Source: a virus. From it: DNA of 64,000 nt. The notes below the pieces were generated by a model, which saw only the letters and a list, made by a program, of their open reading frames with translations, ran no database searches and had not been told where the DNA came from. Of this stretch, positions 4,397-20,887 are shown in pieces. How positions within the stretch are numbered: the first letter of the stretch is position 1; each line of letters begins with the position of its first letter. Location: the IMG/VR virus record IMGVR_UViG_3300049844_000277, positions 36,520 to 100,519 of that record. One strand, 5' to 3'. The translations under genes and the position numbers were made by a program.

Positions 4397-7180
4397 TTAC
4401 CCCCGATATACGCTAGGGTCGTTTTGATTTCGAAGAACCAGAGTATTCTGGTTAATCTTCAAAATTAAATCACCCATTCCGCGGAATGTCGAGCGCAGAT
4501 TATCTTCCAGGGAAACGTAAGCAATGTCTCCGACATCACCCTTAATTCGAGTCTCATCCATCCAAAGAGTGAGTAAAACCCGCCCTAAGTTATCCAGAGA
4601 TTTCTCAAGATTAGGGAGATAGCCGGCAACCATTTCCTTAATCGCCGGAGCTTGGGCCATTGATGCCAGCGCTGCAGCGTCAAACGTGCCCGCGTCGTTA
4701 AGCTGCCCCGCTTGCTCAATGAATTGCGGATTCACCTGAGACTGGACGGTATCCACCGAACCGTCATCCGCTGCCATCATAGCTTGCGGAGGCTGCTGCT
4801 GCGCCTGAGCATTAGGGTCAGCGGCCATTTGAGCATTAGGGTCCGCACCCATCTGCTGCTGCGGTGCAGCCATTCCTTGAACCGGCGCGCCTGCGCCCAT
4901 CATCGACGGGTCCATTGGACCACCCATCGCAGCTGCCGCTGCGGCGGGAGCAGCTCCGGCTCCCCCGCCACTAGCAATCATACTCGCCCGCTGCTGGATG
5001 GCTTGAACCATCTGCTGCATTTGCGTCAAAGCCTGCATCTGGCTTTGAATGTTCTGCATCTGTTCAGCGACCGCCATATCAACGGGCGACGGACCTTGCG
5101 GAGGCTGCATCTGCGCCATCTGCATCTGCTGCATCGCGGCCTCAGCGGGATCGGCTTGCTCAGGCTGCTTCTCGGCGGCGCTCTTAGCGCGGCTCCGGAA
5201 TCCGGATTCCATCTTAGCCATGCTGTTGAACCGCTCCCCTGCCTGACGTGATGTCTCGCTAGCGCCGGGCTTGGAGAGGCGGGCCGAGGGCTCTTGCATC
5301 TTGCGAAGAACCGCTGAATCAGCGCTGCGTACTTTTTCAGCGATTACTCGGGGATCCCTAATTGACGTACGGTTCTCAGCAACGCTCAGCCGAGCCGCCA
5401 CCTTCTCCAACTTCTCCGGCTCAATAATCCAGAAAGAATAGTTCCCCTTCTCCGCCGCTTGCTTCAGGGCAAACTCAGCGTCATCAACAGAGATGACCGC
5501 GTCCGTTGCCAGCTTACGCAACGCTGAAACGAAGTTTGGCGCGTACTCACCAGAGATATTGAAACCATTCTCTCCGGTGTACTTCGACACCTTCACCTTC
5601 TCCGCGCCTTCAGCCAACATAGCGTCGGTCGTCCAGCAGAAGATGCTCTTCGGCGTGGTGAGGAAATCGCGCTGCGTGAGCTCATTCTTGGTTGGAAACC
5701 AAACGAAGTTGCTCGGCAAATAGACAATGTCCCCGTGCGTAGGAATCATTAGCTTACTGCCAGGATATTTATCGTCAGTAACCAGCGTCTTCTTGCCCCA
5801 AGAACCAATCACATCGATCCGTCGACTACCCTCAAAATCAGAGGTAACTGAATCAATAGTAACCGGAGCCGTGGCAACAAACGATGCACCGCGACGCTGA
5901 ACAAAGATACCCTTCTGACCCTTGCGAGGACCTGCGGCAGACGCTTCACCAACAGCCTTCTTGAAGACCTCAGAGCCTTCAAGCTGACTCATCGCTACTT
6001 GCGTACCGAGAAGGTCCGTAGAATCTATGAGGTCGCCGTCTTCGGTAATACCGACGTAACGGTCAATATGAAACTCATCCCGATAGCCGTCCTTGCCAGG
6101 GACACGGTACCGCTCATTGTGGCCCTGCATCTCATTCGCAGGTGCTGCGTTTGAGGGACGGAAACGAATGTTACGCGAAGGAATTCGCTTACCTTCAGCA
6201 TCGCCGAATAGGTTGATGGGGTTCGCGATAACTAAAGCAACAACAGGCTTACCGTCGCGCTTCCATAACTTGTAAGCACCGGCATCCTTAGGCTCATGTA
6301 AATCAAGATACGGTTGAATCGCTACCGCGCGATTAACACGCTTACGGTCATCCTTGGCGTAATAGCCCTTTACCTTCACGCCTTGAAAAGCGGCGGGTGA
6401 CTTAGGCCCAAAGATGTCTTTGAATTCAGCGGACGTAGTCTTGTCGTCCGCGACATACAACGCGCCACCATGATTCTTGATTCCACCGCCGTAGTCAGCC
6501 GTTTTCAGCGCATCGACAAGCGGCTTTTCACCATAGAACCACACCGCTTGCTTGAGCAATCGGGGCCGCGTCTCAAGCATCTTGGCCGCAGCCTTCTTGA
6601 CGCGAGAGGGCGCATTGCTGAGGAAAGTTAAAAATGAAAGCTCAGGCTCAGTCTGATTTCGTGCTTCATCAAAGACACGACTCGCCTGCTTAACCGCACC
6701 AGAGACGTCCGAGGCATAGCTGTAACGTCCAGTCGTCGGAGGAACGACCGTATTACGAATGTCGACGTCCGTCGGCATCGTTGTGGGCGGAGTTACACCC
6801 TTGCCCATTTCACCCAGAGATTGCTTGTCCAACTCCTCCAACCAGTCTTTGGATAGTGGGACGAAGACATTCAGATTCTTGTAGTACAAAATGTCCAGCG
6901 GCTTAATCTGATTATCCGCCATCACAACAGGAACGTAGAGCGTCTGCCCTCGCCTAAGGATAACAAACGCGCCGACACCCGAGCCGTCATCGGGTGAAGT
7001 TTCCAGGACTTTGAATGTAACAACGTCCGGAGCAATATTGGGTAATTTCGAGAGGAGGACGTTGTACGCCATTTGGGAAAGACCTTGGTCGAACAAAGCT
7101 TTCGCTTGATCGCCGGTTCCTCCCAGCTGTCCCATCGCTTGCGTCCTAGGCGAAATCGCTGGCATGTCATCTCCCGACAA
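4397..7180 (-). CDS. Large hypothetical protein (927 aa) with Gln/Met/Ala-rich low-complexity segment; possibly virion-associated
   Basis: Uninterrupted 2.8-kb ORF. The segment near 4770-5180 encodes ...AMQQMQMAQMQPPQGP...QMQALTQMQQMVQAIQQ...GADPNAQMAADPNAQAQQQ... No enzymatic motif recognised. Confidence 0.6.
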   Translation of the reverse strand: MSGDDMPAISPRTQAMGQLGGTGDQAKALFDQGLSQMAYNVLLSKLPNIAPDVVTFKVLETSPDDGSGVGAFVILRRGQTLYVPVVMADNQIKPLDILYYKNLNVFVPLSKDWLEELDKQSLGEMGKGVTPPTTMPTDVDIRNTVVPPTTGRYSYASDVSGAVKQASRVFDEARNQTEPELSFLTFLSNAPSRVKKAAAKMLETRPRLLKQAVWFYGEKPLVDALKTADYGGGIKNHGGALYVADDKTTSAEFKDIFGPKSPAAFQGVKVKGYYAKDDRKRVNRAVAIQPYLDLHEPKDAGAYKLWKRDGKPVVALVIANPINLFGDAEGKRIPSRNIRFRPSNAAPANEMQGHNERYRVPGKDGYRDEFHIDRYVGITEDGDLIDSTDLLGTQVAMSQLEGSEVFKKAVGEASAAGPRKGQKGIFVQRRGASFVATAPVTIDSVTSDFEGSRRIDVIGSWGKKTLVTDDKYPGSKLMIPTHGDIVYLPSNFVWFPTKNELTQRDFLTTPKSIFCWTTDAMLAEGAEKVKVSKYTGENGFNISGEYAPNFVSALRKLATDAVISVDDAEFALKQAAEKGNYSFWIIEPEKLEKVAARLSVAENRTSIRDPRVIAEKVRSADSAVLRKMQEPSARLSKPGASETSRQAGERFNSMAKMESGFRSRAKSAAEKQPEQADPAEAAMQQMQMAQMQPPQGPSPVDMAVAEQMQNIQSQMQALTQMQQMVQAIQQRASMIASGGGAGAAPAAAAAAMGGPMDPSMMGAGAPVQGMAAPQQQMGADPNAQMAADPNAQAQQQPPQAMMAADDGSVDTVQSQVNPQFIEQAGQLNDAGTFDAAALASMAQAPAIKEMVAGYLPNLEKSLDNLGRVLLTLWMDETRIKGDVGDIAYVSLEDNLRSTFRGMGDLILKINQNTLVLRNQNDPSVYRG

Positions 7181-7194
7181 AAATCATTGTACTA

Positions 7195-7238
7195 CGTAAA
7201 GCGAAACGGCCGCCGGTCCATTAGGACCCAGCGGCCGT
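7195..7238 (-). terminator. Candidate rho-independent terminator after the 419-aa gene
   Basis: The minus strand reads ACGGCCGCTGGGTCC-TAAT-GGACCGGCGGCCGT (about 13 GC-rich bp with a small internal loop), followed by TTCGCTTT. Confidence 0.45.
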
Positions 7239-7268
7239 CGTGGGCCCACTAACTGGGAGCGAAGGAAC

Positions 7269-8528
7269 TTAGCTCGCCGAAGCCGCGATTTCTCGAATGC
7301 GACCCAGAAGAGCGCTCTCCTTCTTCTGAGCCTTACCCGATTCGTCCTCGTGCTCAACTTCCTTCTTCATCTTCTTGCCCTTCTCAGACTTCGACTCGTC
7401 GCCCTTCATACCTTCCGCGCAAGCCGCCTCTGCTGCCTTCTTCTCCGCATGCAGATGGTTTAAGTACTCCTGCCTCGCGGTGTGGTCGTACCCAATCATC
7501 CGGCTGATAGCCGCAACCTTCTCGTCATCGCTCATCTCCGGAAGGTACGGACCCACGTCTTCCGCGGTCTTCTTAAAGAGGACCAGGAAAGCATCTTCCT
7601 CTGAAGTCTTGGAAGCTTCAATGACCGAGTTCGTCCCAGCGGGGCTGTTCTTAGGCGCCTTAGGGTGCGGCATCTCAGTGCCGACATGGTGCGTCTGAGG
7701 CTCCGAGATGTTGGCGTTACCCATTCCAACTAGGTACGCCCCCTGAGGACGATTCTTTGCGTCAAGCTTCGCCACTGAATCTACCGAGTCGGTAAGCTTG
7801 TTCTTGTCCTTACCGTCATGTAGTCCAACGAGCTTATTCGCAATCTTCTTAAGCTCGGCATCAAGCCCCGCCGCCTTCGCCGAACCGGCGTCCTTCGCTA
7901 CCGAATTCGTACCAGCAGGCGTATTCGCTGGACCCTTGGGATTCTTGCTCAAGTCACCAACGTGACCCTGCATAGACTCGAGCTCAGTCTTGCCCATGCC
8001 GTGGTGATACATTCCCTCGGGTCGTTGCTTTTGGTCTAACGCAGCAACCTCCCCATTATGTGCAGCTTGCGCGGGGTCATTACCCTTGTCGCCACCGTGC
8101 ATGAGAGCGCCGCCGGATGCTTGCTTAACCTCTTCCGCAGCCTTGGTCATACAGGCAACAGCCTCTTCGCCCGCAAGAGACTCGTAGTCCGCTTGAGCAG
8201 CGGTCTTCGTAACTTCAGCAGCAGCTTTTGCTACCTCGGGGCTGGGAGGAGGAAGCGGCATACCGCCCTCACCCGGAGGACCACCGGCAGCGCCGGCCTG
8301 CTCCATGAGCGCGTGAGCAATTTCCATGAGCTTATTCGCCACAGCGGCAAGCTCTTCCGGCGAATGACCGCCCTCAGGAGAAACTTCCGGCATTGGCGCG
8401 GCTACCGGAGAATCGGCGACAGCATCCGCCGCCTCATCCATGGCTTCCTTTGACGGAAACGCGATGATCCCCTGGCGAACCAGTTCGTGTGCAACTCCCC
8501 GTGCTGCGGCGCGCTTAAAGAGTCCCAT
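7269..8528 (-). CDS. Acidic Ala/Lys-rich protein with an internal ~49-aa duplication (scaffold- or decoration-like by composition only)
   Basis: Residues 163-211 (ALDQKQRPEGMYHHGMG...PAGTNSV) and 254-302 (KLDAKNRPQGAYLVGMG...PAGTNSV) are paralogous. AAGGAG RBS, own candidate promoter upstream and terminator downstream. Confidence 0.6.
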   Translation of the reverse strand: MGLFKRAAARGVAHELVRQGIIAFPSKEAMDEAADAVADSPVAAPMPEVSPEGGHSPEELAAVANKLMEIAHALMEQAGAAGGPPGEGGMPLPPPSPEVAKAAAEVTKTAAQADYESLAGEEAVACMTKAAEEVKQASGGALMHGGDKGNDPAQAAHNGEVAALDQKQRPEGMYHHGMGKTELESMQGHVGDLSKNPKGPANTPAGTNSVAKDAGSAKAAGLDAELKKIANKLVGLHDGKDKNKLTDSVDSVAKLDAKNRPQGAYLVGMGNANISEPQTHHVGTEMPHPKAPKNSPAGTNSVIEASKTSEEDAFLVLFKKTAEDVGPYLPEMSDDEKVAAISRMIGYDHTARQEYLNHLHAEKKAAEAACAEGMKGDESKSEKGKKMKKEVEHEDESGKAQKKESALLGRIREIAASAS

Positions 8529-9085: not shown

Positions 9086-10885
9086 TTAGTAACGCCCTTC
9101 CGGACCCATCCCAAATTCAGCCCCATAAGCATAGGCGGGTACCGGATGCGTACTGTGTAAATCAGACGCAGCGCCGGTTCGTGCCCCCTGCAGAAGGGAA
9201 TCCTTTAGATATCGGTGAGCCAAGCGCGCCATCCAGTCAGGATGTAGCAGTGGATTACGTGCCATCGGACGCATCAAAAATTCTACCCGAGGTAATGTAG
9301 TGGCGACAGATACTTCCGAAATTTTATGCTCATTCAATTTCTGTATAACTGATGGTGTTAACGGAGTTCCGGCGGTGAAGTGAAGAACTTCTTTACCGAG
9401 TACACCACCCTCCGCCTGCTTCAACGGAACAGATTTACTGTGCCGTGCTGCGGCATCTCTATACGTTGAGTAAGGAATAACCTCGCCCTTTACCAACGTA
9501 GGATGCTCATCAGTATGCTCGAGAACTTTGACGTGGTTGAGGTCCGCGCGGGCAACCAACTCAAGGTGCCGCTTGTCGACATTGAGTCCTTGTCCATGAT
9601 AGATGTCGTGCAATGTGTCCACGAGGTACTGTCGTCCGACACCAAAGCCCTTGTGATGAATGAGCTCGTCTGGTTTCGGAATTCCTTCTGATAAGACATC
9701 CCCCGCCTCTACTTTCTGTCCCACATGAACTAAGATTTTTAAGTTTGGTCCGGCGTAATGTTGTAAAGCATCAACATGCACGTATGTTCCACCGTGCGGA
9801 GCTGGGATTATTTTTGTAATAGTACCTGCGTGCTCTGCTAGCGGTGCTTTATTAATGAAGGTCTGGGGGATTTCCAAAAGCTGACGGATACCAGACATCC
9901 CCTCTAACTTGGGGGATGTACCTTTGAGTAACCGCATACCGTGCTTAGCGCCGAGCGCCATTTGAGTCAACGGTTCGGAGATAGACTGGGCGGCACGGAC
10001 TCCGACGTTAACACCGATAGCGTGCGGACGTCCTCGCTCATCTAGACCCTGGCACTTACGACAGACGCCATCCTTGGTGACGCAGGTCATTGGTGAACGC
10101 ACGTACACTGTACTGACCTTTGCCTGAAGCTTAGACGCCACTTCTTTTGTAACTAAATCATTCCGATGAAATCCAGCCTGGTCTCGAGATAAATAGCGGT
10201 CAACAATATTTCCATCGGAACTATTCATTGCGAGACCGTTATCAGTTCCGCAATCGTCCTGGGTAATAACCAGCGGATACATATTGTTGGTCATCACCTT
10301 AGACATATCGCCAGGCTCTGCGATGGCCGTATAGGTTTGTACGATGTTATGTCGCGCTTCGTTTCCTGCGGCCCAATGGTCAGCAGCGGACAACCCTTCG
10401 GCGTAGGACTTACTGATTAGCCAGGGATTTATCTCCCCTTTGCTTGTCGTAGTCGCAACCGGGGACGCAATGGTTTTCATCAGCTGCGGAATATTGCCGC
10501 GCGCACCCGACAATGCCATCGAGGTCATAGAACCTGGATGCTTTTTGGTGTGCTCAAGCATCTTCTTTTGTACATCTAAAATAATCTTCTCTTTGGCGTC
10601 TCTATTGTCCGCGTTTTTAATTGCGGCGACAGCGGGCTGCATGATGCTGTCGCGTTCTTTGTACTCCGGCGTAATGTCATCCAACCCTACAGAGACACCT
10701 TCAAGCGTAGAGATGTCGTCCCCTAAGGTTTTTAGCTTAGAGACAATTTCTACGTATTCGGCAGGATCTTCCTTGGCCAAGTCCAACATTTTCTGTTGGA
10801 ACTCTTTTTTATTTAGTGTGCCCGTAATGTGATGCTTCCCGGGCAGCAGGCTATTGACCAGAAACCTACCTAACGGCTGAGCCAT
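9086..10885 (-). CDS. rpoC: DNA-directed RNA polymerase beta' subunit, C-terminal half
   Basis: Motifs colinear with bacterial beta': GVSVGLDDI, SGARGNIPQLMKT, GLSAADHWAAGNEARHNIVQTYTAIAEPGDMSKV (bridge-helix region), GVNVGVRAAQSISEPLTQMALGAKHG (trigger-loop region). It continues where the 2836-aa ORF stops. Confidence 0.85.
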   Translation of the reverse strand: MAQPLGRFLVNSLLPGKHHITGTLNKKEFQQKMLDLAKEDPAEYVEIVSKLKTLGDDISTLEGVSVGLDDITPEYKERDSIMQPAVAAIKNADNRDAKEKIILDVQKKMLEHTKKHPGSMTSMALSGARGNIPQLMKTIASPVATTTSKGEINPWLISKSYAEGLSAADHWAAGNEARHNIVQTYTAIAEPGDMSKVMTNNMYPLVITQDDCGTDNGLAMNSSDGNIVDRYLSRDQAGFHRNDLVTKEVASKLQAKVSTVYVRSPMTCVTKDGVCRKCQGLDERGRPHAIGVNVGVRAAQSISEPLTQMALGAKHGMRLLKGTSPKLEGMSGIRQLLEIPQTFINKAPLAEHAGTITKIIPAPHGGTYVHVDALQHYAGPNLKILVHVGQKVEAGDVLSEGIPKPDELIHHKGFGVGRQYLVDTLHDIYHGQGLNVDKRHLELVARADLNHVKVLEHTDEHPTLVKGEVIPYSTYRDAAARHSKSVPLKQAEGGVLGKEVLHFTAGTPLTPSVIQKLNEHKISEVSVATTLPRVEFLMRPMARNPLLHPDWMARLAHRYLKDSLLQGARTGAASDLHSTHPVPAYAYGAEFGMGPEGRY

Positions 10886-10891
10886 GGGAAT

Positions 10892-11308
10892 CTATCTCGC
10901 CCCGTATGGGTCATTAGGAGGCGGAGGTTGTTGAGGTTGAGACGGTGTCATGGCCTGCTGTATGCCCATCATAGCTAGGGGAATAGACGCTTGAATCGCC
11001 ATATCCCGCCCAAAACTTTTTAAACCTGATTTCCAACCACCTGGCTCTTGGGCTGGCGTTGCGGGGACCTCAGGTGTCTTTGGTACAGTGTCCGCAGACG
11101 TCACTGCCGGATTGGCGGTACCACCAAAAATAGGCGGCTTGCCTGCTGGCTGCTGTACCGGCGCTGCTGGCGATGTCTTCGGCGTAACAGGTTTGCCCTT
11201 CTGACCCTTCGCGAAGCGCAGCATCTGAACGGGCGCAGGCGCAGCCGTTTTCGTAAACGTCATCCACGCATCAGTAGTTCCCACAGAATAAAAGATATCG
11301 GCAATCAT
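10892..11308 (-). CDS. Proline-rich hypothetical protein
   Basis: ORF of 138 aa that is Pro/Ala-rich throughout. No motif recognised. Confidence 0.4.
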   Translation of the reverse strand: MIADIFYSVGTTDAWMTFTKTAAPAPVQMLRFAKGQKGKPVTPKTSPAAPVQQPAGKPPIFGGTANPAVTSADTVPKTPEVPATPAQEPGGWKSGLKSFGRDMAIQASIPLAMMGIQQAMTPSQPQQPPPPNDPYGAR

Positions 11309-11664
11309 ATCGCAGCTCCGTCCCGACCAATGCCGGAGTAATCATACGTAGGCGAGCCGCCGCTCCAAGGACTTGATACTCCGCCCCATCGTACGGGGTT
11401 CCCAAAACGCTCGCGACGTTTATCACGCTCAGGGGAAATCCCCGGGTCCATGTCCGTAAGATGCTTAGCTAACCGCTCCGCGGCTACGTTCATATCCCCG
11501 TGCGGAATAGCATGCTGCATGGCATGAGCGGCGGTTCTCACGCCGAAATCTTCTTCTGCGCGAATTCTACCTTCAGCGTAAGCTAAATTCGTCATACGAA
11601 AACCTAGGCTACTCTCGCCCACTACGCAATCGATTAGGTGTAACAGCGTTCTCTTTCCAACCAA
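11305..11664 (-). CDS. Hypothetical protein (start uncertain)
   Basis: The track ORF starts at TTG. An internal ATG at 11595 (MTNLAYAEG...) is an alternative. A ~52-codon GTG ORF (from 11767) in another frame overlaps the 5' end. Confidence 0.35.
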   Translation of the reverse strand: MVGKRTLLHLIDCVVGESSLGFRMTNLAYAEGRIRAEEDFGVRTAAHAMQHAIPHGDMNVAAERLAKHLTDMDPGISPERDKRRERFGNPVRWGGVSSPWSGGSPTYDYSGIGRDGAAI

Positions 11665-11750
11665 CTAAAGCTTCGCGCTTTTTAACGGCATCCTTTAGTT
11701 TCTGCGCTAATTCTTCAGCGGCGATGCGCTGTCCTTCCTCGTAAGCGTAC

Positions 11751-12380
11751 TTAAGTACCGGCTCCACGGGAACCTCCTTCACAGAACATCATTCGCCGTA
11801 GGTCATCAGCATGCTGCTGGTCAGTAAGGACCATTTGCTCCAGCATGACCTTAAGCGACAAATTATCTCCGGCCATGTCTGACAGATGTCGTAACTCTTC
11901 AATCAATTGCTTCTCAGTTTGTAGAAGAGTCATGAAAATCTGGTGGAGGTCACTCATGTTCGGGATGACACCTACCTTAGGAATAGGTTCTCCGCCTAAC
12001 GCCGTAATCTTCATTGCGAGATGGTAGGCGTCCATCCGCTCTTCTTTGATGTGCTCTTTAAAGTGGTCGTAGATAACATCTCTAAAGTGCGCACGAATAC
12101 GATCGCCATAATTCATATACATGAAGATGATGGTATATTTGTAGCGCAGCAACTTATTACACTGAGCCACTACCTTATCCTGGGCAACCGCGAAGAATCC
12201 TTCCTCGGCCGATACAGCAAGAGGATGAGCACCAGCAGATGCTGTGGCAAGCGGAGGCATGGCGAACATCTCCTCCGTGTGCGGGGATGACTCCATTGTG
12301 TCCGCCATTGGACTGCTAGGAACTGGAAGACTCGAGCCACTCTCAGCCATGGAAGTACCCACTTTGTAGCGCTGCGTCAT
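11751..12380 (-). CDS. Dps/ferritin-like four-helix-bundle protein with ~70-aa N-terminal extension
   Basis: ...YMNYGDRIRAHFRDVIYDHFKEHIKEERMDAYHLAMKITALGGEPIP... and ...LLQTEKQLIEELRHLSDMAGDNLSLKVMLEQMVLTDQQHADDL... follow the Dps pattern (F..lH..f.e....d.iAERi.aLGG.P ... gD..t...l). Confidence 0.55.
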   Translation of the reverse strand: MTQRYKVGTSMAESGSSLPVPSSPMADTMESSPHTEEMFAMPPLATASAGAHPLAVSAEEGFFAVAQDKVVAQCNKLLRYKYTIIFMYMNYGDRIRAHFRDVIYDHFKEHIKEERMDAYHLAMKITALGGEPIPKVGVIPNMSDLHQIFMTLLQTEKQLIEELRHLSDMAGDNLSLKVMLEQMVLTDQQHADDLRRMMFCEGGSRGAGT

Positions 12381-15300
12381 GTACCCACCTCAACTCGAGT
12401 ATTGAGCGTAATCTCCCCGCGCTTATAGGCGGCGAGAGCTTCTTCTCTATTTTTGAAATGGCGTACTTTATCGTTCGCGGAACTCTCGGCTTTGGACGCC
12501 AAATGTACCCCAAGCATAGCTTCCATTCGTGGCGCTACCATCAAGCTATCTTTTTCACGGTCCGAGAATAGAAGGTTTGAGAGAGTCATCCCCTTCACTT
12601 CATCTATCGCGGGCTTCAGTACGGGAACGTGGATTTGGAATGTGTCCCAAACTACGAGGCCGTCGTTGACCGCGAAAATTTGTGTGTCAGGAACAATAAG
12701 GTCATAGACGGTTTCTTTTCTTAATACCTCGACCGACTCTACTAGATCCCAGGTAATTCCAACGTTCTCAACGATCCTTGCCCAAGCATCGACATCTGGT
12801 GTTTTGGCCGTCCGGAAAAAATGCAACATACGCCGAGCGTTTTGCCTCGTAACGTATGGAGCCTCTTTTCGTTTAGATCGTAGCGTAGCCAATGATGCGC
12901 AGAACGAACTATCTTCCGCGCACGGACCAGTACGGCTGGAGGCGAGGGTCATTAGATTTTTAGGAACAGGAACAATATCCACCTGATCCACAAGTTCATC
13001 AGCTTCTAGGAGGTTCAAAGCCTCCAAAGATTTAGAGTTGTTCCAAATTCCTCTACGAAGCCAGGACACGTTACGCTGGAGGTCTACGGTACTAATAGGT
13101 ATCGTATAAGCTACAGCTTTTTGGAGACGTCCCTCCTTCGGATATGCTTCGCTCACAGAACACCGGACGCCGATAGTTTGTAACAAAAAACGTAATGAAG
13201 CTGCTAACGCAGCAGACGACGTGTGAAGGGCGGCCATCACTTGAAGTTTTGCCTTACCGGCGCTGACAGTGAGTGTACCGTCACCGTTCAACATTCCGAT
13301 GAGCACACCCCACCGAGCCTCCTCAGACCAGTCCCCAAACGCTGGCACGCGTTTCGAGAGACAAGAGCGTCCGGGTACCCTCTCATCTAAGTAACAAGTC
13401 TTGAACAGCTCAACGCACTTCTGCGCACCACTAAAGTGGTCTTTGATACTTTGTCCTGTTATTCCGTTAGATGCGTCGTGTACCTCACGATACGTATTTC
13501 GCTTAATGAGCTTACCCTCAAACGCATTCACCGCGGCAGCAAAGCGTTCACGGTGCACGTCACTAACTTTCGTGTACCCGAAATAATGATCGGTTTCACC
13601 CAGTAAGAAACCGTCGGACAAGAATGCGCCGACCATCCATCCAAACTCAAAATCCCCCTGTGACCCCGTTAACGGTAAATGCCGCACAACCGGAGCTAAC
13701 TTTCCAACGGAATCCGAGGGCGCTGTTGCTTCGATCTGACCTGTTTCATGGTTATAAATACACAACGACTCATTCGTCGACGCCGTAACGCTTAAACCAC
13801 GACGCATTTCTACTTTCGCCACTTCGCATCCGTCTTCAATCGTAAGTCCTGTCACCGGGGACATTACTGATTTACTTGCGGAGTGGTCGTAAGAAAGAAC
13901 GCGAAAACCCTCCGGAACGGCGTAACTGCGAGCACCATTCTTGTCGATACTATAGGGCTCCTCAGCGTGTGGAATCTCTTGAAGCTCCGCTTCCACCAGC
14001 GCCTGTACCGCTGAGGTCCAACAAACACGAGTCTCTGCCGCGAATTTCATGGCTGTCTCCTTGGCTTCATCGCCAAGGAGCGCTTTACAAGCCGCACCTT
14101 CTGCTGTCAACACAACTTTCGTCGAACCCAAGAAACAGTTTCCATCGTAATCCGCATTGAAGCCAAGCTCTGCGAACGGATTTACGCGAATCGTCTTCCC
14201 CGCAACAGGGACGGCGTGAGCGCCAATAAACCCGTACCGGTGGAGAGTCGGAGCGCGATTCACCATCACCGGACGCTCCTTAATCTCCGCCATCAACGCG
14301 TCGTGCGCTGCCGGATGTTTCTTTTCCAACATCTCTTTCGCTTGAATGGCTCCGAAGCCGCGACGGATAAGGCGTGAGATAATAAACTTCCCGTACATGC
14401 CCCAAAGCATGTCTATCGGAATACCTATCTCATCCATGCTCAGAGAGCCGTCTGGAGCTATGGTTCCGCGGCCGGAGATATCTTGCTGCCGCTTCATTAT
14501 TCGTTTTTGGAAAAAGGAACTGTTCCCCGATACGGAAGGTTTACCGTTACGGCGAACAACTACAGTACCATTAGGGACTGTCACACAATACACGGTTCCT
14601 TTGTACGGGTACGCCTCGGTAAAAGAGCCCGACTCAATGGTGACATCAGAAAACCCCCGCACAGAAAAAAGATAATGCGGGAGATGGTGATCCTTAACTG
14701 GCGGACAAATTCCTCTAAAAATAACTTGGTAACCTATTTTTGCAGCGAGATGCTGTAGGTCATCAATTAATTGTAAACTAGCGGTACCGGCGTGAGCACT
14801 CAGCGGTTTACGCCGATAATGGGTTTTCGGGTTTTTCACGTTCTTCGCTAACGAAGGGTGAAGGGTTCCATCTCCACGCAGATATCCGCGCAATAATCCC
14901 TCTAACATAGCAGAAGGCCACGCTAAAATATCTGAAGATAAGTGTTTACTCTCGCACCCACGCCCGCAATGATGCGTTAACCAATCCGCCAGTGAGCGTA
15001 ACCTAATAGTCCACCAGATTACCTGGTATCCATCTTTACGCGTATATGTTTTGCGTACAAAGGGAATATCCAATTTTTTAAAGCACAAATCCACCGCGCG
15101 AACGTGTGGAGACGTTGCGGCTTGACACAAAGAAACCTGGGTTCCTGTTGTGGAAATCCAACCTTCCGCAATCCACCAACCTACAAACTCCGCAAAGGCC
15201 AAAGGATCTGGAGTAAATGTTCCTACTAAATTAGCCGTACGCCGTTTTTTGTTATCCGTAGAAACTTCACACGTATCTCCCGCGAAAACCAACTCCGGAA

Positions 15301-18300
15301 AAGTACCCTCCCACTCCTCAGCGCTAACCATTACCCTCCGGCGGTCCGTGCCTATAAAAGTATCCGCGCGTACCTTTTCCCACGGAGTCCAGACATAGAG
15401 CGCCTTACCGTTACTTACGCGCTTACGGCGATACGAGACTACATGTTCGTGGTTAGGTGTTACACATAAATCAAGTTCACGGCTGCGCGTATGTATCAGA
15501 TCTCCGTCGAACGGCATGGATACTAACGCGGTCGGCTTCTGCCATTCAAATTCCCGGGTGTCTAAGTTAACCGTAGCGACACGAGTTTTTCCGGTGTACT
15601 TAGAAAAACGAACCCACCCTTTTTCTGTAAGAATATCTGTTTGATCATCGTAACATTTTGGCGTAGTTTTCCCGGTAATATGCTCGAGAAATCCCTTTAC
15701 GTTTCTCTTTTGGAGTTTGGGGTTATCTGATTCGTGCGTACCAATCACGGCGCCTACCGCGTGAAACAAGTTCTGACGAAGCTTCGCTTGTTCATCCGGC
15801 GGAAGAATTGGAGATTCAATTTGCTTCCGTAATGACTGATTATGAAGGATAGCGCTTTGGTACAGGTAGTTCGAATCACCTACTACGAGCTCAGAGCCAC
15901 TCTTCCCCGGAAGAATGGGTCGCATTATTGGAGGAAGAACAGGCAACTTGGATAGGACGTACGCATCTCCCGGCTTGAGCTCCTGCCGATTCAGCGCCTC
16001 AAGGAACTTCAACTGCTTTACTGCGTCATCTAGCTTCGTACCGGAGAGCGACTTAATAGAGTTACGGAGCTCCGCGATACGCGCCTTAACGTCGATAGCG
16101 TTAAGCTTTTTCTTTACCGCAGCGCCACCATTCGTATGGTGATACTGGTCAAAATCTTTCGCGGTCATCCCCAGCAAGCGACGGGCAGGGTCGGCGAATA
16201 CAGGATTTACAACGGGCTCGGCGAGCTCAATGTGGCTCCACCGTGTTCCAGTGGTACCGCCAGTAACCGCGGGGTCAAACAATCCCCCACGTTCAGCGGC
16301 CAAATCTTTAGCGCGTACTAACTTCTCATTTTGTACTTCGCCAGATGACATCCGTAGAATGTCTTTATCGGTAAGCGGAGAGAGCGTGCTGATACTTCCA
16401 CGCGAATCAACTTTGACCCCTGCGCCATGCAGCATACCGATGAACTTGTCATAAACGAACGACGACTTGAGTGGAGGGAGAGGCAGTCCCAGCTGAATCG
16501 CCCGCCAGAACTCATCGTTCTTCTGGCTCTTAATAGCCGCCGTCTCTCGAAGCACGTTCCGCGCATTATGTGCAACGAGGGCATTGAACTCCATTTTACC
16601 GACGGCTTTCGCGCCTTCGTCACCGCCCTTAATTGGCTGCTGATTAACGTCGTACGCACCCGTACCGCGCGCGGCGTAGTTGGTCTCCGTGGTCTTAAAC
16701 AAGCGAAGTACGTATTGCGGCCCAACCAGGATTCCCGGAATCTTTTTACCCGACACAGGGTCTATCAGCGTTTCCTTGTCCTTGACCTTGTGCTCCTTCA
16801 GTAAATCCTTTGCCCACTGTACGTTGTCACGCCCTGAAAAGTTTTCAACGACAATAGGTTTACCGATTTTCTTGGCAACCTTAGCGACACACGTCTCTAG
16901 TATTTGCGACGGATTGATTCGGGAAATTACGCCAGCCGAGGTATACAAAACCTCAATCGGCTTACCCGTCTCATCTTGAAGCATCTTGTGATCGGGAACA
17001 ATAAGGGAAACAACGCCCTTGTTTCCGTGGCGTCCTGTGTTTCCGCACCATACTGATTTACCATTTCTGCGAACATACAAAACATGTCCAGGAACAGTTA
17101 CACAGTAAACTGGTGATTTGTACGAATCTACAAAACATTCCACCTGACCCTTCTGTCGTTTGATATGTCCATGATTCACAGTAGGTGTTAATTTCGAATT
17201 AATAATTCGTACCTGCCAATAATCACGACACCAAAAATCTTTACCTTTGATTGTTTGATACCCTTCAGCTTTCGCTAACGACACATTAGCAGCTTTACCA
17301 ATATGTAGTGCGAGACGCTGAACATCATCCGCCAAACGTTTGGATGTTGTTTTGTAGCATATCGGTTGGCCATTTTTAGTATGACCGTCACCCCACATCA
17401 ACCAGTTGAATAGCGTCTCTTGATCCGCTCGAGACCAAGCGAACACCTCAAGCGGGATAAATTTCTCGTAAGACTTACCGAACTGTTTAAAGTACTGCCA
17501 ATATTGCTTGGAATGAATACGAACCTTATCACCTGTGTCCGTGAATAAAATCCCTTCCTCACGAAGAAACTTTTCTAACTGTTTTCGATTTGGCTGATTA
17601 ATTTGCGTAATCTCTATGCCGTAAGTACCGGATTCTTCAATCGTAATGAGATTACCTTCAGATAAAAACGCACCGAGAAGAGCGGCTAAGGTTTTAGTCG
17701 GAAGCGCTTTATCATCTAAAACACGTAAACCCCGGCCCCCTTGTCCCGCGCGCACAGTTATCGAGTCAAATACAAACGACTCAGGAGAGTGCCCCACCCA
17801 AATCCCATCCTTCTTATAACTGACCCTTTTTCCTGCGATTTCATACGCCGGTAAAAGTTGGAAAGATTTCTCGTTGCGCGGTTGAACGTACATATGATGT
17901 CCGTCGGTCACAAACAAATCTACCTGTTGTGATTCGATGCGGTACATCCGTCCGCCTTCTGGATACGAATGAATTGCGTCGGGCTCTAGGTACTCGATAT
18001 TTTCGCCATTCTGTAACGTACAAATCTTATCCGTAATACGTACATCCGCTATCGGTTTCCACCCTTCCCACGTGAGAACCTCAGTCTCTGCATCATAACA
18101 GAGCTTGTCTCCGACGCGCATCGGCTCACGGGTCTTAACCGTTACAACGACACGCTTGTCCGTCACATAAACATCCATGACTTCACCTTCGAAGTCGTGG
18201 TCCCACGTACGAACAAGTTCCCGATACGGCGTAACTAACGTCTTCTTTAGGTTACCGAGAAGCGCATCAGACGCCGAAAGTTTACCTCGTGTGACTCCAG

Positions 18301-20887
18301 CGATGAGTATGTCGTGAGGCATAACCTTCATGCCCTTCTTCACGACACCATTGGGGTCAAGCTTACGATACTGCTCTGCGGTATACTTCGACCCGTAGTA
18401 CTGCTGATGGATATCCCTGCCAACCTTGGAGTCGCGATCTACTTCAACAACTTCCTTGTACATATGCTCTGACGTTAACTTCTCGGCGGCGCCAGAGGAG
18501 ATAACGACGGCATCGTTGGAGTTCATTCCGTAATACGGAACGTACCCTACCGTCATATTCGTACCGAGAGCGAAGGAACCGTTGCGGGTAAAATTAGACT
18601 CCGCGAGCGGCTGATCCGCTTCTACCTTATCACCAGGCTTCACCAGAATGTCGTGATGAAGGTGTGTCTTAGATGCGAACGGAAAATTATTCTCGTATGG
18701 AACCCGAATCAAATCTTTCTCAGCAGCTACCTTTTCCCGATTACGCTCGGAGAGGTAGTCCTCTTTAAACTCATCCCAGGTATACTCATCCATGGAACCG
18801 TAGCCCCAAGGAGGACCGTGCTTCTCGTAAGCGCTTTTAGCGGCCTCTTTGGAATCGAAGCCAAGCATGCACTTGTCTTCGTCGTGAGACCCATCCTTCT
18901 TGCGCTGATGTACGACGTAAACATTATCGAAAGAACCATCTTCCTTCAGATAAACGTCGACCGTTTCACCGTCGTCGCCGACGGTCTTAGGAATGTGTCC
19001 GTAGGCCACGGACATCTTCTTTTCCCACTTCTCTCCTTCGGCGTTAGTGCCGGTACGAATATCTCCCGGTTCAAGCTCAATCTTAACGAGCACACCTTGA
19101 ACAGTCTTTTGACGCTTGACCGCCCCGCCTCGTTTCTCGAAAGCGCTCTTCTCGCTTAAGAAATCTTCAGCGTGCTTCTTTCCGCTAGGGTCGATGTAGA
19201 TGTATTGCCCATCAACCTTCACTACTTTGCCCGCTACAGGTGCCGTAGGAAGAACCAGCCCCGCGAGCTCCTTCTCCCAGCTTGAATGCTCAACACCCTT
19301 CTCAGTCAACTTATTGGCGGCTGATTGTACAAGAGGTGCTTCGCGATGAACGAGAGGAAGGGCTTGTGTTTGAACCTTACCACCCATGATGGCACGGTTC
19401 CCCTGCATCGACTCAAGGAACGGGACAAGGTTAGTTGCCGGAGAATACAACTGAGCCACGTCGTACAACTGGTGAGTCACCTTTGCCGCTGGTACGTGCT
19501 CCAACTGCCCTTTGTTCATTGCGGTGACCATTCCCGTAAGCTTTTGCTTAGGGAACGCCACGACCGCCTCGGACATTTGAGCCGCAGACAGCATCTCATA
19601 CTTACCGGACTTAATGTTCTTAGCTGCGGTGTAGAGATTTCCCGTAGCATCCCGGTGCGCCATCATCGCCGTGCGAATATCAATACCAGCGCGGAAGGAC
19701 TCAGACGTACGAACGGGGTCCAGTATCCCTAGATGACTCGAATGAATAGTACGCGCTTCAGCGGGAATCGCGCGCTCATTCGGAATACCTCCTTCGCCGA
19801 GAGATGTAACACGCACAGCGTGGTCGATGGCCTCCATCGGGTTGATGTGCGTGGGAATCGAGCTCAGTTGTGAACCCGTAAGAAAACTTCGGATGCCGGG
19901 CGAAAAGGGCGACGAAGGAAGAATCGCACGGAGTTCAGTCTTATGTGTTGCGCGACCCTTTACCTTATTTGCCAGGGCACGTGCATCCAGCGTTATACGT
20001 TCCTTGATAAAATCGTCTACCGAATGATACGTCTTGAAACGTAAAGCGTCACGATCATCAGTATCCGCATTATCCCGGTACACCTGTAATAGCCGCTTCG
20101 ACGCAACGAGTAGTGCCTGCGGCGTAACCGATGAAAAAGCGTGCCCCAAGGTTTGTTGGTTAACCTCGGGATCCATAGACGTAACAGCGTAAGCTGCTCG
20201 AATAGCATCAAGCTGTGTCTCAGGATTAGTCGCAGCACGTTTAGCCGGATGCACTACTTTCTCGTAAAGCTTATTCAAATGCTTATCGTGCTTACCTTCG
20301 AAAGCCGCCTCATTTTGATGAGCGACATCCGAGCCCCAATGAGTAGAAATATCAGCGTGCGGAACGCCTAATTTTCGAAGTACGGGGTAAAGCGGAATAG
20401 ATGTCGTCCCATACTCGATGTATGGATGTCCTTGGGCAGGGTCTAACGAAAGTCGAAAATTGGTTCCCTTCGACAAGTTAAAGGCGGCCTCTAGTTCCTC
20501 ATTTCCACGTCGCCGCGTATAGACGCCAGGCTTGAGCCGAAGTTGATTTGATACGTTGTACTCGTTACCGTCCAAAATAAAAGTATGCCGTCCTGTGAAA
20601 TAAGGAAGACTCAATAACGTAAAGTTCTTAACTTTCTCAACTTCTTTACCGGAAGCATCACGTAGTGTGACGGTTCCTTTTATCGGCTCAGAAAGAGAAC
20701 CACCGCTCAATAGCGCGTGCTTTTGATCGTTTGGGCCAAAGTCCTTTTCATGGACCTTCAGGTCACTGACCTCAATACTCTTATCCCGCAATGTCAGTGG
20801 AAAAGCGTTTCGCAACGCATCGAGCGCCTTTGCACGAATTTGAACTCGACGGGACTCGGCATCGGTAAGCACGGGAGTGAGCGACAT
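12377..20887 (-). CDS. rpoBC: DNA-directed RNA polymerase beta subunit fused to the N-terminal half of beta', interrupted by three inteins
   Basis: Beta motifs: FILDGNEYNVSNQLRLKPGVY, GEGGIPNERAIPAEARTIHSSHLGILDP, GNRAIMGGKVQTQALPL, VGDKL|TGRHGNKGVVS, GKMEFNALVAHNA. In the same frame follow beta' motifs: RWSHIELAEPVVNPVF, LPVLPPIMRPI, VNRAPTLHRYG, FNADYDGN|TFQIHVPV. Removing the three inteins (354+378+498 aa) leaves about 1606 aa. Confidence 0.9.
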   Translation of the reverse strand: MSLTPVLTDAESRRVQIRAKALDALRNAFPLTLRDKSIEVSDLKVHEKDFGPNDQKHALLSGGSLSEPIKGTVTLRDASGKEVEKVKNFTLLSLPYFTGRHTFILDGNEYNVSNQLRLKPGVYTRRRGNEELEAAFNLSKGTNFRLSLDPAQGHPYIEYGTTSIPLYPVLRKLGVPHADISTHWGSDVAHQNEAAFEGKHDKHLNKLYEKVVHPAKRAATNPETQLDAIRAAYAVTSMDPEVNQQTLGHAFSSVTPQALLVASKRLLQVYRDNADTDDRDALRFKTYHSVDDFIKERITLDARALANKVKGRATHKTELRAILPSSPFSPGIRSFLTGSQLSSIPTHINPMEAIDHAVRVTSLGEGGIPNERAIPAEARTIHSSHLGILDPVRTSESFRAGIDIRTAMMAHRDATGNLYTAAKNIKSGKYEMLSAAQMSEAVVAFPKQKLTGMVTAMNKGQLEHVPAAKVTHQLYDVAQLYSPATNLVPFLESMQGNRAIMGGKVQTQALPLVHREAPLVQSAANKLTEKGVEHSSWEKELAGLVLPTAPVAGKVVKVDGQYIYIDPSGKKHAEDFLSEKSAFEKRGGAVKRQKTVQGVLVKIELEPGDIRTGTNAEGEKWEKKMSVAYGHIPKTVGDDGETVDVYLKEDGSFDNVYVVHQRKKDGSHDEDKCMLGFDSKEAAKSAYEKHGPPWGYGSMDEYTWDEFKEDYLSERNREKVAAEKDLIRVPYENNFPFASKTHLHHDILVKPGDKVEADQPLAESNFTRNGSFALGTNMTVGYVPYYGMNSNDAVVISSGAAEKLTSEHMYKEVVEVDRDSKVGRDIHQQYYGSKYTAEQYRKLDPNGVVKKGMKVMPHDILIAGVTRGKLSASDALLGNLKKTLVTPYRELVRTWDHDFEGEVMDVYVTDKRVVVTVKTREPMRVGDKLCYDAETEVLTWEGWKPIADVRITDKICTLQNGENIEYLEPDAIHSYPEGGRMYRIESQQVDLFVTDGHHMYVQPRNEKSFQLLPAYEIAGKRVSYKKDGIWVGHSPESFVFDSITVRAGQGGRGLRVLDDKALPTKTLAALLGAFLSEGNLITIEESGTYGIEITQINQPNRKQLEKFLREEGILFTDTGDKVRIHSKQYWQYFKQFGKSYEKFIPLEVFAWSRADQETLFNWLMWGDGHTKNGQPICYKTTSKRLADDVQRLALHIGKAANVSLAKAEGYQTIKGKDFWCRDYWQVRIINSKLTPTVNHGHIKRQKGQVECFVDSYKSPVYCVTVPGHVLYVRRNGKSVWCGNTGRHGNKGVVSLIVPDHKMLQDETGKPIEVLYTSAGVISRINPSQILETCVAKVAKKIGKPIVVENFSGRDNVQWAKDLLKEHKVKDKETLIDPVSGKKIPGILVGPQYVLRLFKTTETNYAARGTGAYDVNQQPIKGGDEGAKAVGKMEFNALVAHNARNVLRETAAIKSQKNDEFWRAIQLGLPLPPLKSSFVYDKFIGMLHGAGVKVDSRGSISTLSPLTDKDILRMSSGEVQNEKLVRAKDLAAERGGLFDPAVTGGTTGTRWSHIELAEPVVNPVFADPARRLLGMTAKDFDQYHHTNGGAAVKKKLNAIDVKARIAELRNSIKSLSGTKLDDAVKQLKFLEALNRQELKPGDAYVLSKLPVLPPIMRPILPGKSGSELVVGDSNYLYQSAILHNQSLRKQIESPILPPDEQAKLRQNLFHAVGAVIGTHESDNPKLQKRNVKGFLEHITGKTTPKCYDDQTDILTEKGWVRFSKYTGKTRVATVNLDTREFEWQKPTALVSMPFDGDLIHTRSRELDLCVTPNHEHVVSYRRKRVSNGKALYVWTPWEKVRADTFIGTDRRRVMVSAEEWEGTFPELVFAGDTCEVSTDNKKRRTANLVGTFTPDPLAFAEFVGWWIAEGWISTTGTQVSLCQAATSPHVRAVDLCFKKLDIPFVRKTYTRKDGYQVIWWTIRLRSLADWLTHHCGRGCESKHLSSDILAWPSAMLEGLLRGYLRGDGTLHPSLAKNVKNPKTHYRRKPLSAHAGTASLQLIDDLQHLAAKIGYQVIFRGICPPVKDHHLPHYLFSVRGFSDVTIESGSFTEAYPYKGTVYCVTVPNGTVVVRRNGKPSVSGNSSFFQKRIMKRQQDISGRGTIAPDGSLSMDEIGIPIDMLWGMYGKFIISRLIRRGFGAIQAKEMLEKKHPAAHDALMAEIKERPVMVNRAPTLHRYGFIGAHAVPVAGKTIRVNPFAELGFNADYDGNCFLGSTKVVLTAEGAACKALLGDEAKETAMKFAAETRVCWTSAVQALVEAELQEIPHAEEPYSIDKNGARSYAVPEGFRVLSYDHSASKSVMSPVTGLTIEDGCEVAKVEMRRGLSVTASTNESLCIYNHETGQIEATAPSDSVGKLAPVVRHLPLTGSQGDFEFGWMVGAFLSDGFLLGETDHYFGYTKVSDVHRERFAAAVNAFEGKLIKRNTYREVHDASNGITGQSIKDHFSGAQKCVELFKTCYLDERVPGRSCLSKRVPAFGDWSEEARWGVLIGMLNGDGTLTVSAGKAKLQVMAALHTSSAALAASLRFLLQTIGVRCSVSEAYPKEGRLQKAVAYTIPISTVDLQRNVSWLRRGIWNNSKSLEALNLLEADELVDQVDIVPVPKNLMTLASSRTGPCAEDSSFCASLATLRSKRKEAPYVTRQNARRMLHFFRTAKTPDVDAWARIVENVGITWDLVESVEVLRKETVYDLIVPDTQIFAVNDGLVVWDTFQIHVPVLKPAIDEVKGMTLSNLLFSDREKDSLMVAPRMEAMLGVHLASKAESSANDKVRHFKNREEALAAYKRGEITLNTRVEVGT
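12644..14137 (-). mobile_element. Intein 3 (498 aa, LAGLIDADG type) inside the catalytic NADFDGD-type motif of beta'
   Basis: Junctions are FNADYDGN|CFLGSTKVVLTAEG... and ...VYDLIVPDTQIFAVNDGLVVWD|TFQIHVPV. Dodecapeptide motifs are MVGAFLSDGF and LIGMLNGDGT. The C-terminus is atypical (Trp-Asp instead of His-Asn). Confidence 0.75.
14522..15655 (-). mobile_element. Intein 2 (378 aa, LAGLIDADG type) in beta' N-half
   Basis: Junctions are ITGKTTPK|CYDDQTDILTEKGW... and ...VVVRRNGKPSVSGN|SSFFQKRIMKR. The site corresponds to the bacterial LLGKRVDYSGRS region. Dodecapeptide motifs are FVGWWIAEGW and LRGYLRGDGT. Confidence 0.8.
17039..18100 (-). mobile_element. Intein 1 (354 aa, LAGLIDADG homing-endonuclease type) in beta, inside the GDK..GRHGNKG motif
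   Basis: Junctions are VGDKL|CYDAETEVLTWEGW... and ...LYVRRNGKSVWCGN|TGRHGNKG. Dodecapeptide motifs are LLGAFLSEGN and WLMWGDGH. Confidence 0.85.

Follow-up and report, generated by a model that had tools for sequence, protein, structure and literature searches.

The window analysed here, a 64,000-nucleotide stretch of the virus record IMGVR_UViG_3300049844_000277 in IMG/VR (positions 36,520 to 100,519), encodes a multisubunit RNA polymerase (RNAP) whose β′ Mg-binding loop is split by an intein, hereafter intein 3, directly after a codon for Asn that stands in the place of the third metal-binding Asp. In our best reading of the sequence comparisons, intein 3 is a splicing-competent, mobile, non-canonical LAGLIDADG intein that requires this Asn at the last extein position (Asn(-1)), and is not a dead insertion. 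As an explanation of the whole we favour, with a probability of roughly 0.45, a functional and mobile intein together with regeneration of the Asp in the mature polymerase. The inteins at this DFDG(D)|T site of the phage multisubunit RNAP β′ Mg-binding loop apparently form a large and undescribed family.

RNAP β and the N-terminal half of β′ are fused in one open reading frame (ORF) of 2836 amino acids (12377..20887, minus strand, as are all features below), which is interrupted by three inteins and an InPase-like domain. Intein 3 comprises 498 residues (12644..14137; amino acids 2251-2748 of the ORF) and extends from the N-terminal nucleophile Cys1 (TGT, 14135..14137) to Trp497-Asp498. The N-extein ends N-A-D-Y-D-G-N (AAT GCG GAT TAC GAT GGA AAC, 14138..14158) in the metal-A loop, its last codon AAC (14138..14140) placing Asn(-1) at the third-Asp position, and the 88-residue C-extein (12380..12643) starts TFQIHVPV with Thr+1 encoded by ACA (12641..12643). 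At the block G end (12644..12649), Trp497 (TGG, 12647..12649) and Asp498 (GAC, 12644..12646) replace the canonical His-Asn. All these residues and codons lie where the original prediction, made from the letters of the window, had placed them when it proposed an intein that splits a NADFDGD-type motif and ends in Trp-Asp. We also agree with its suggestion that the splicing chemistry is non-canonical, and to the loss of the penultimate His and the terminal Asn we add a change that it overlooked: the block-B His is lost as well, with Glu in its place. Block B reads S120-T-N122-E123-S124 (13766..13780), the canonical T-x-x-H having become S-x-N-E, and in the family-profile alignment Glu123 falls on the block-B His of PI-PkoII ('ITSGHSL'). 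Block F, D479-L-I-V-P-D-T-Q486 (12680..12703), lies within a match to the Ssp DnaB mini-intein (query 459-497) and contains the conserved Asp479 (F:4; 12701..12703; 150/155 members) as well as Gln486 (12680..12682) at the block-F His position. Between the splicing blocks lies a LAGLIDADG homing-endonuclease domain (approximately 12758..13660), whose two motifs carry Asp175 (GAFLSD175G, 13613..13615) and Asp286 (MLNGD286G, 13280..13282), conserved in 131/143 and 145/148 family members, respectively.

Intein-free homologues define the limits of the insert. A gapless NADYDG-D-T/A... is present in all 25 intein-free proteins (47-82% identity) and in all 80 intein-free IMG/VR loci (49-83% identity), and Asp occupies the third position in 105/105 of these homologues, including relatives 74-86% identical to the window polymerase. 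Because the homologues are continuous across the site, the insert is exactly bounded and Asn stands where Asp is expected. The comparison with homologous phage RNAPs, which the original prediction had called for, thus bears out its claim that Asn occupies the position of the third metal-binding Asp. The nearest relatives are viral contigs of roughly 190 kb, whose polymerase is 74-86% identical and lacks all three inteins; their DNA reads GGN GAC ACN, and that of the window GGA AAC|TGT...TGG GAC|ACA. Among 50,697 GenBank phage records, the window DNA and intein 3 had neither a near-identical nor a protein-level match and no member of the intein family is present; these records yielded only distant intein-free RNAPs (Salmonella phage Arash, 37%).

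An exhaustive search of 1.84 billion protein representatives recovered 558 relatives of intein 3 at E<1e-3, of which 129 reach E<1e-30. Most of the relatives lie within fused polymerases of 2000-3400 amino acids, and the best 150 family members were examined for their junctions. A word-indexed protein search, with the intein plus its flanks or with the family profile, was swamped by β′ words and gave P0028 and P0035 only. Among the best 150, D-x-D-G-N|C is found in 85/85 sequences of the window's type (type A, described below) with a visible N-junction, and almost every type-A C-junction reads [W/Y/F]-D|T(S), a recurrence far above chance; in the family as a whole the terminal Asp is present in 143/151 members and the penultimate residue is W/Y/F. 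These residues are retained although type-A inteins share a median identity of only 33% (22-55% range) and their host exteins have diverged down to ~39%, and the codons vary synonymously across members, AAC or AAT for Asn(-1) and GAC or GAT for the terminal Asp. P0028, for instance, comes from an unrelated sequencing run and has an intein 48% identical to that of the window, yet it reads DYDGN|CFIGST...GLVVWD|TLQVHAP with GAT as the terminal Asp codon. Mini-intein derivatives, from which the endonuclease domain has disappeared, have preserved the junction residues too. Such family-wide retention despite divergence argues that these residues are under strong purifying selection.

The inteins at this site are of three types. 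Type A, to which the window copy belongs (122 among the best matches), combines Asn(-1), Cys1 (85/85), Thr99-x-Glu101 and block B S-x-N-E-S with a C-terminal part that has Lys at the block-F His position, a penultimate aromatic residue, a C-terminal Asp and Thr at +1. The block-B His is absent in all type-A members; residue 101 (Glu in the window, GAA, 13835..13837) is Glu or Asp in type A and His in types B and C. Lys occupies the block-F His position in 113 of ~122 type-A members, including P0028, and the window copy, with Gln486, may splice less efficiently than typical members. Type B (17 among the best matches) has Asp(-1) (DFDGD), Ser1 (Cys1 in two), Ser99-x-His101 and block B S-x-D-H-S, ends in [W/Y]-Asp|Thr as type A does, and is variable at the block-F His position. 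Type C (P0157, L086-L088 and L092) has Asp(-1), Leu, Gln or Phe at residue 1, block B T-D-D-D, block F ...GHETF with Asp at F:4, and a canonical Ser-Asn|Thr end. Type C inteins match neither class 2 (Ala1/+1 Cys) nor class 3 (F:4 Cys) as defined, and N-terminal cleavage may in their case involve the extein Asp(-1). The original prediction had viewed Asn(-1) and the terminal Asp as a reciprocal swap, each one nucleotide away from a canonical ..DGD|C...HN|T. We reject this framing, since the C-terminal Asp and the penultimate aromatic residue are common to types A and B whatever the -1 residue, type B having Asp at both positions; and no close canonical ancestor of type A is visible among the family members.

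The extein residue and the intein vary together. Asn(-1) pairs with Cys1, Glu101, Asn122 and a non-His residue (mostly Glu) at 123 in 85/85 sequences with no exceptions; Asp(-1) pairs with Ser1 (two Cys1), His101, Asp122 (two His) and His123 in 10/10. The intein changes linked to Asn(-1) are two His-to-Glu and one Asp-to-Asn, and for the most part Asn(-1) also goes together with Lys at the block-F His position. Between the -1 residue and B:10, the block-B His position, the pairs seen are Asn/Glu, Asp/His and Glu/Gln, a pattern that would be expected of two hydrogen-bonding side chains. The last of these pairs is from a metagenomic, non-polymerase protein of 806 amino acids (P0117), which carries a type-A-like intein (...GTPDFDGE|CVIGDTE...RGIIVWD|TQLR, block B T-K-N-Q-S); this looks like an ectopic transposition to a DFDG-x|T look-alike site, with B:10 re-adapted to the new -1 residue.

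A single-sequence search of the PDB with intein 3 gave no match. The family profile, however, matches PI-PkoII (E 1.6e-12), PI-SceI, the Ssp DnaB mini-intein and the TFIIB, RadA and CDC21 inteins. An AlphaFold2 model of intein 3 from a 12-sequence alignment reached a predicted local distance difference test (pLDDT) score of 82.9 and a predicted template modelling (pTM) score of 0.81, and was used instead of a model from a 3-sequence alignment (pLDDT 52). Foldseek comparison of the model with the PDB retrieves full-length inteins as best matches, led by PI-PfuI (E 9e-18, TM-score 0.62/0.69) and including TliVMA, PI-PkoII and PI-SceI. For the endonuclease part, Foldseek also matches I-SceI and I-OnuI-type enzymes, and the profile matches the endonuclease domains of PI-SceI and PI-PkoII. 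Intein 3 is thus predicted to have a HINT plus LAGLIDADG fold. It has the marks of an intein, i.e., the HINT fold, an in-frame insert missing from close homologues, and Cys1 and Thr+1 as nucleophiles, and its autocatalytic excision with ligation is predicted on indirect evolutionary evidence. It also has those of a LAGLIDADG endonuclease, two motifs with conserved acidic residues and the corresponding fold, with cleavage predicted. Of the canonical class 1 features, block-B T-x-x-H and the His-Asn terminus are absent and the block-F Asp (F:4) is present. Intein 3 is neither class 2 nor class 3, because Cys1 is present and F:4 is Asp, not Cys; it has neither the Ala1 and direct attack by a +1 Cys of class 2, nor the class 3 combination of a missing residue-1 nucleophile, F:4 Cys and the WCT triplet.

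The C-junction register and the competence of the intein are supported by the residues at +1. Of 80 intein-free alleles, 49 have Thr directly behind the third Asp, 28 have Ala and 3 have Ser, while in intein-bearing alleles the +1 residue is Thr or Ser in 150/151 (about 99% compared with 65%). This enrichment argues that the residue is needed as the +1 nucleophile and that the C-junction is D|T, a register that is fixed by type C, which at the same site reads ...DFDGD|...SN|T. Both the 8.5-kb ORF and the endonuclease motifs are intact, the exteins are as conserved as those of empty alleles, and Cys1, Asp479, Asp498 and Thr+1 are conserved family-wide. When alleles are ordered by extein identity to the window, those with and without the intein are interspersed: it is missing at 86, 84, 84 and 78%, present at 71%, missing at 70%, present at 66%, missing at 63-57% and present at 56%. 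These observations speak for a splicing-competent, homing element and against a dead insertion. The Asn codon adjoins the intein and would therefore be co-converted during homing.

What then becomes of Asn(-1)? Mg-A is ligated by all three Asp residues of NADFDGD, which has been called a universally conserved motif (PMC13198411), and triad substitutions do roughly as much damage as deletion of the trigger loop (PMC3105419); the β′ of the window as encoded departs from this triad, with NADYDGN. Known intein splicing proceeds by an N-to-S shift, transesterification, cyclisation of the terminal residue and an O-to-N shift, and C-terminal Asp/Gln inteins also splice via cyclisation (PMC4031507). 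By this chemistry, Asn(-1) would be joined to Thr+1, and the product would be D-Y-D-G-N. Of the two residues that the mature enzyme may carry, Asn or Asp, we favour a regenerated Asp. The Asp at -1 is invariant in types B and C as well as in the 105 empty alleles. In IMG/VR, the pattern NAD[FY]DGN-T had two matches, both out-of-frame and non-polymerase, so that no intein-free DGN RNAP allele was found there, compared with at least 120 matches for NAD[FY]DGD-T and five for the type-A junction NAD[FY]DGN-C; and among 241 million metagenome records D[FY]DGN-T-x3-H-x-P had 34 matches, none in a polymerase. From these comparisons, Asn appears to be required wherever a type-A intein is present and is never seen where the intein is absent, and the intein appears to have entered polymerases that were recently DGD. 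A horizontally spreading intein must, moreover, be harmless by itself. Taken together, the invariance of Asp, the lack of intein-free DGN 'scar' alleles, the recently DGD hosts and the need for harmlessness favour regeneration over a tolerated D-D-N site.

We put at close to even odds that the Asp is regenerated by deamidation during or after splicing, which would make this the first splicing product to differ from its encoded exteins. In the mechanism that we propose, an N-to-S acyl shift at Asn(-1)-Cys1 would be assisted by Glu123 instead of His, with Glu123 probably hydrogen-bonded to the Asn carboxamide. Transesterification onto Thr+1 would follow, Asp498 would cyclise to an anhydride (where Asn usually forms a succinimide) and thereby release the C-extein, and an O-to-N shift would make the peptide bond. 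Asn(-1) would act as a masked 'pro-aspartate' that the precursor needs and that is deamidated while splicing proceeds or right afterwards. Three routes are conceivable: the backbone nitrogen of Cys1 could form an imide at the activated -1 carbonyl, an isoimide could arise once the thioester exists, or the amide nitrogen could pass to the terminal Asp of the intein. In each of them Glu123 or Glu101 could serve as acid/base, and the mature polymerase would again have a D-x-D-G-D triad.

Several points speak against this proposal. Splicing and the residue at the spliced junction are deduced from sequence and model only, the contact between Asn(-1) and Glu comes from covariation only, and the window copy has Gln486 where the family has Lys at the block-F His position. 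Since the standard routes from Asn(-1) give Asn-Thr, Asp could form only through a further hydrolytic step that releases ammonia; to our knowledge no intein changes an extein residue, and we know of no precedent for such an Asn-to-Asp hydrolytic step, the deamidation routes being our own inference. The evidence from the lack of intein-free DGN scar alleles is weak, because intein loss may occur mainly by recombination with empty DGD alleles and not by precise deletion. Finally, the carbonyl oxygen of Asn can itself ligate Mg2+, a point that also favours the possibility that Asn(-1) is simply retained.

In that case splicing would follow the ordinary Cys1/Thr+1 course with Asp cyclisation, and a D-x-D-G-N metal-A site would leave the RNAPs functional, though perhaps less so, with Asn persisting since Asp at -1 would prevent splicing of the type-A intein. 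We consider this doubtful, yet it is a serious competitor: known intein chemistry predicts no other outcome (PMC4031507), Mg-A is the only Mg ion that the third Asp ligates (PMC13198411), the covariation of the -1 residue with the intein shows an intein that either needs the -1 side chain or adjusts to it, which would lock Asn in, and selfish homing elements can spread at moderate cost. It has to be reconciled, however, with an Asp that is invariant in all 105 intein-free alleles and in types B and C, with the lack of an intein-free DGN allele in two very large collections, and with the universal conservation of NADFDGD (PMC13198411) and the severity of triad substitutions (PMC3105419). Hosts that were recently DGD, as the relatives 74-86% identical indicate, would have had no time to compensate, yet type A is the commonest type (122 versus 17 among the best matches).

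The other explanations fare less well. Cleavage without ligation is improbable: following an acyl shift, Asn(-1) would form a C-terminal succinimide and Asp498 an anhydride, the intein would be freed and β′ left as two chains, and hydrolysis of the succinimide to isoasparagine (Asp alpha-amide) would restore a carboxylate resembling that of Asp where the N-fragment ends. In its favour, types A and B have an Asx|Cys/Ser/Thr pair at each of the two junctions, the block-B His has been lost, a divided β′ is already tolerated by these polymerases, and excised inteins normally hydrolyse their succinimide to Asn or isoAsn (PMC4031507); but a chain break inside a buried catalytic loop is unprecedented, hydrolysis yields an Asn/isoAsn mixture, the 88-residue C-extein would have to assemble alone, and the sequence data do not set this outcome apart from ordinary splicing. 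That the insert does not splice and inactivates, or is merely tolerated in, a decaying or dead polymerase gene was one reading offered in the original prediction, and we find it very unlikely. The block-B His, the penultimate His and the terminal Asn are all missing, as is the family Lys in the window copy, and one family member (P0136) looks degraded. Against this stand 2836 uninterrupted codons, exteins 74-86% identical to intein-free relatives, the fact that the ORF holds the only β′ catalytic motif of the window, the family-wide conservation of the four junction and block-F residues, the Thr/Ser enrichment at +1 and the mini-inteins that keep their junctions; moreover, a 55-kDa domain in the buried Mg loop would, judging from RNAP structure, be incompatible with an active enzyme. 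Still less credible is a shift of both junctions by one residue, so that N-C...W is excised, the terminal Asp is the extein's third Asp and the product DYDG-D-TFQ is unchanged. The empty site GGN|GAC ACN would then be regenerated at the 3' junction (GGA [AAC TGT...TGG] GAC ACA), and the same rule gives DFDGD-T for types A and B alike. It would, however, put Cys at position 2, Asp at +1 and Thr at +2, reacting via 8-membered transition states, whereas the Thr/Ser enrichment beside Asp fits Thr as +1 and the canonical Ser-Asn|Thr end of type C after DFDGD fixes the register. Sequencing or assembly error at the two codons, which the original prediction had named as a possibility, has a negligible chance. 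Each site is one transition from the canonical residue, but the same residues are present in P0022 (a 99% identical fragment), in P0028 with the other Asp codon and in about 85-140 further independent sequences, and conservation at ~33% median identity with synonymous codons excludes consensus errors.

Among known systems, intein 3 resembles class 1 LAGLIDADG inteins (PI-PfuI, PI-SceI/Sce VMA1, TliVMA and PI-PkoII) in fold and domain order (Foldseek E 9e-18 to 1e-10, TM-score up to 0.69), in its in-frame location at a conserved active-site position, in Cys1, Thr+1, the block-F Asp and the two LAGLIDADG motifs, and in a sporadic distribution consistent with homing. It differs from them in the replacement of the block-B His by Glu, of the penultimate His by Trp/Tyr/Phe and of the terminal Asn by Asp, and in an extein -1 residue that is catalytic and differs from all intein-free alleles. 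C-terminal Asp/Gln/Glu inteins such as those of CIV RNR and Pab/Mma Pol II likewise have a non-Asn terminus that still cyclises (Amitai, Dassa & Pietrokovski 2004, J Biol Chem 279:3121; PMC4031507), and some of them also lack the penultimate His (PMC4031507); unlike intein 3, they keep the block-B His and leave extein residues unaltered, whereas here the terminal Asp is fixed across a large family and both His residues are lost. The block-B His ranks as the most conserved residue of inteins, missing in only two known inteins (Mills, Johnson, Perler 2014, PMC4031507). One of these, Tko CDC21-1, activates its N-junction without His B:10 via compensating residues (PMC4031507), as intein 3 would. 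The difference is that here Glu at B:10 covaries with the extein -1 residue, while there another intein residue compensates. That residue is reportedly a Lys, as Tori et al. are said to have found in 2012. Among class 2/3 inteins (Mja KlbA; mycobacteriophage Bethlehem DnaB, PMC2807308), too, lineages, many of them in phages, have re-engineered the splicing pathway; they lack the residue-1 nucleophile, as do the type C sisters, whereas the window intein has Cys1 and F:4 Asp.

Archaeal RpolA inteins are listed in InBase. Eukaryotic and viral RPA2/RPB2/RPC2 inteins also occupy conserved positions lining the RNAP active-site cleft, yet they lie in the second-largest subunit and have ordinary junction residues (PMC1635734). 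Our literature searches yielded no account of an intein within the NADFDGD motif or rpoC, nor of an intein-linked deamidation. Isolated precedents exist for a C-terminal Asp/Gln, for block-B His loss (Tko CDC21-1) and for penultimate His loss; what we did not find in the literature is the combination of these deviations, their fixation in a large family and, above all, a recoded host catalytic residue that covaries with the intein. If the Asn is kept, these are natural and evolutionarily successful multisubunit RNAPs with a D-x-D-x-N metal-A site, which would be at odds with the accepted view of an invariant triad. If it is Asp that is restored, an extein residue can be edited by an intein; this would be new protein chemistry and would open a way to proteins that keep an essential carboxylate masked until they splice. 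In both cases, the intein active site has been rebuilt in a coordinated manner, with no catalytic His, Glu at B:10, a terminal Asp and a co-evolving extein residue, and types A, B and C at one insertion site amount to a natural experiment on the evolution of splicing mechanisms.

Pfam assigns RNA_pol_Rpb2_6, Rpb2_3, Rpb1_1, Rpb1_2, InPase and LAGLIDADG_3 domains and a weak Intein_splicing match to the 2836-residue ORF, with the β domains (Rpb2_3, Rpb2_6) preceding those of β′ (Rpb1_1, Rpb1_2). The remaining Rpb1-type active-site domain, Rpb1_5, is found in a gene of its own (9086..10885), which encodes the C-terminal half of β′ and completes the polymerase interrupted by intein 3. Between the two halves of β′ (9086..12380) lie a ferritin-like ORF (11751..12380, PF00210), which has a 4-nt overlap with the RNAP stop, and two short ORFs of unknown function. 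Within the window no second β′ catalytic motif was found besides that of the fused ORF, and a search of these 64 kb for a spare polymerase that would make the intein-bearing gene dispensable likewise found none. The InPase-like domain (PF18823 'Inorganic Pyrophosphatase', E 1.6e-32; 18761..19120, amino acids 590-709) is located inside the β part, and a pyrophosphatase-type module within an RNAP would be functionally suggestive of removal of the pyrophosphate product.

The genome is unusually intein-rich. Intein 1 (17039..18100) sits in the GDK..RHGNKG motif of β (GDKL|C...WCGN|TGRHGNKG) and has a LAGLIDADG_3 match, and intein 2 (14522..15655) sits in β′ (TTPK|C...VSGN|SSFFQ). Both have block-B T-x-x-H and a terminal Asn, with the penultimate His replaced by Gly, and both are absent from the relatives 74-86% identical. 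A fourth intein of 427 amino acids (23269..24549; ...RKANE|CVSLDT...GGATKN|SIALEH), with LAGLIDADG_3 and weak Hint_2 matches, interrupts a 1003-residue ORF (22363..25374) that, from its sequence alone, is a putative portal-like protein. Finally, two large ORFs of 927 and 419 amino acids (4397..8528) have no Pfam match and carry long low-complexity tails rich in Ala/Gln/Pro/Met (e.g. MQQMQMAQMQPPQGP...); they may be virion or internal proteins.

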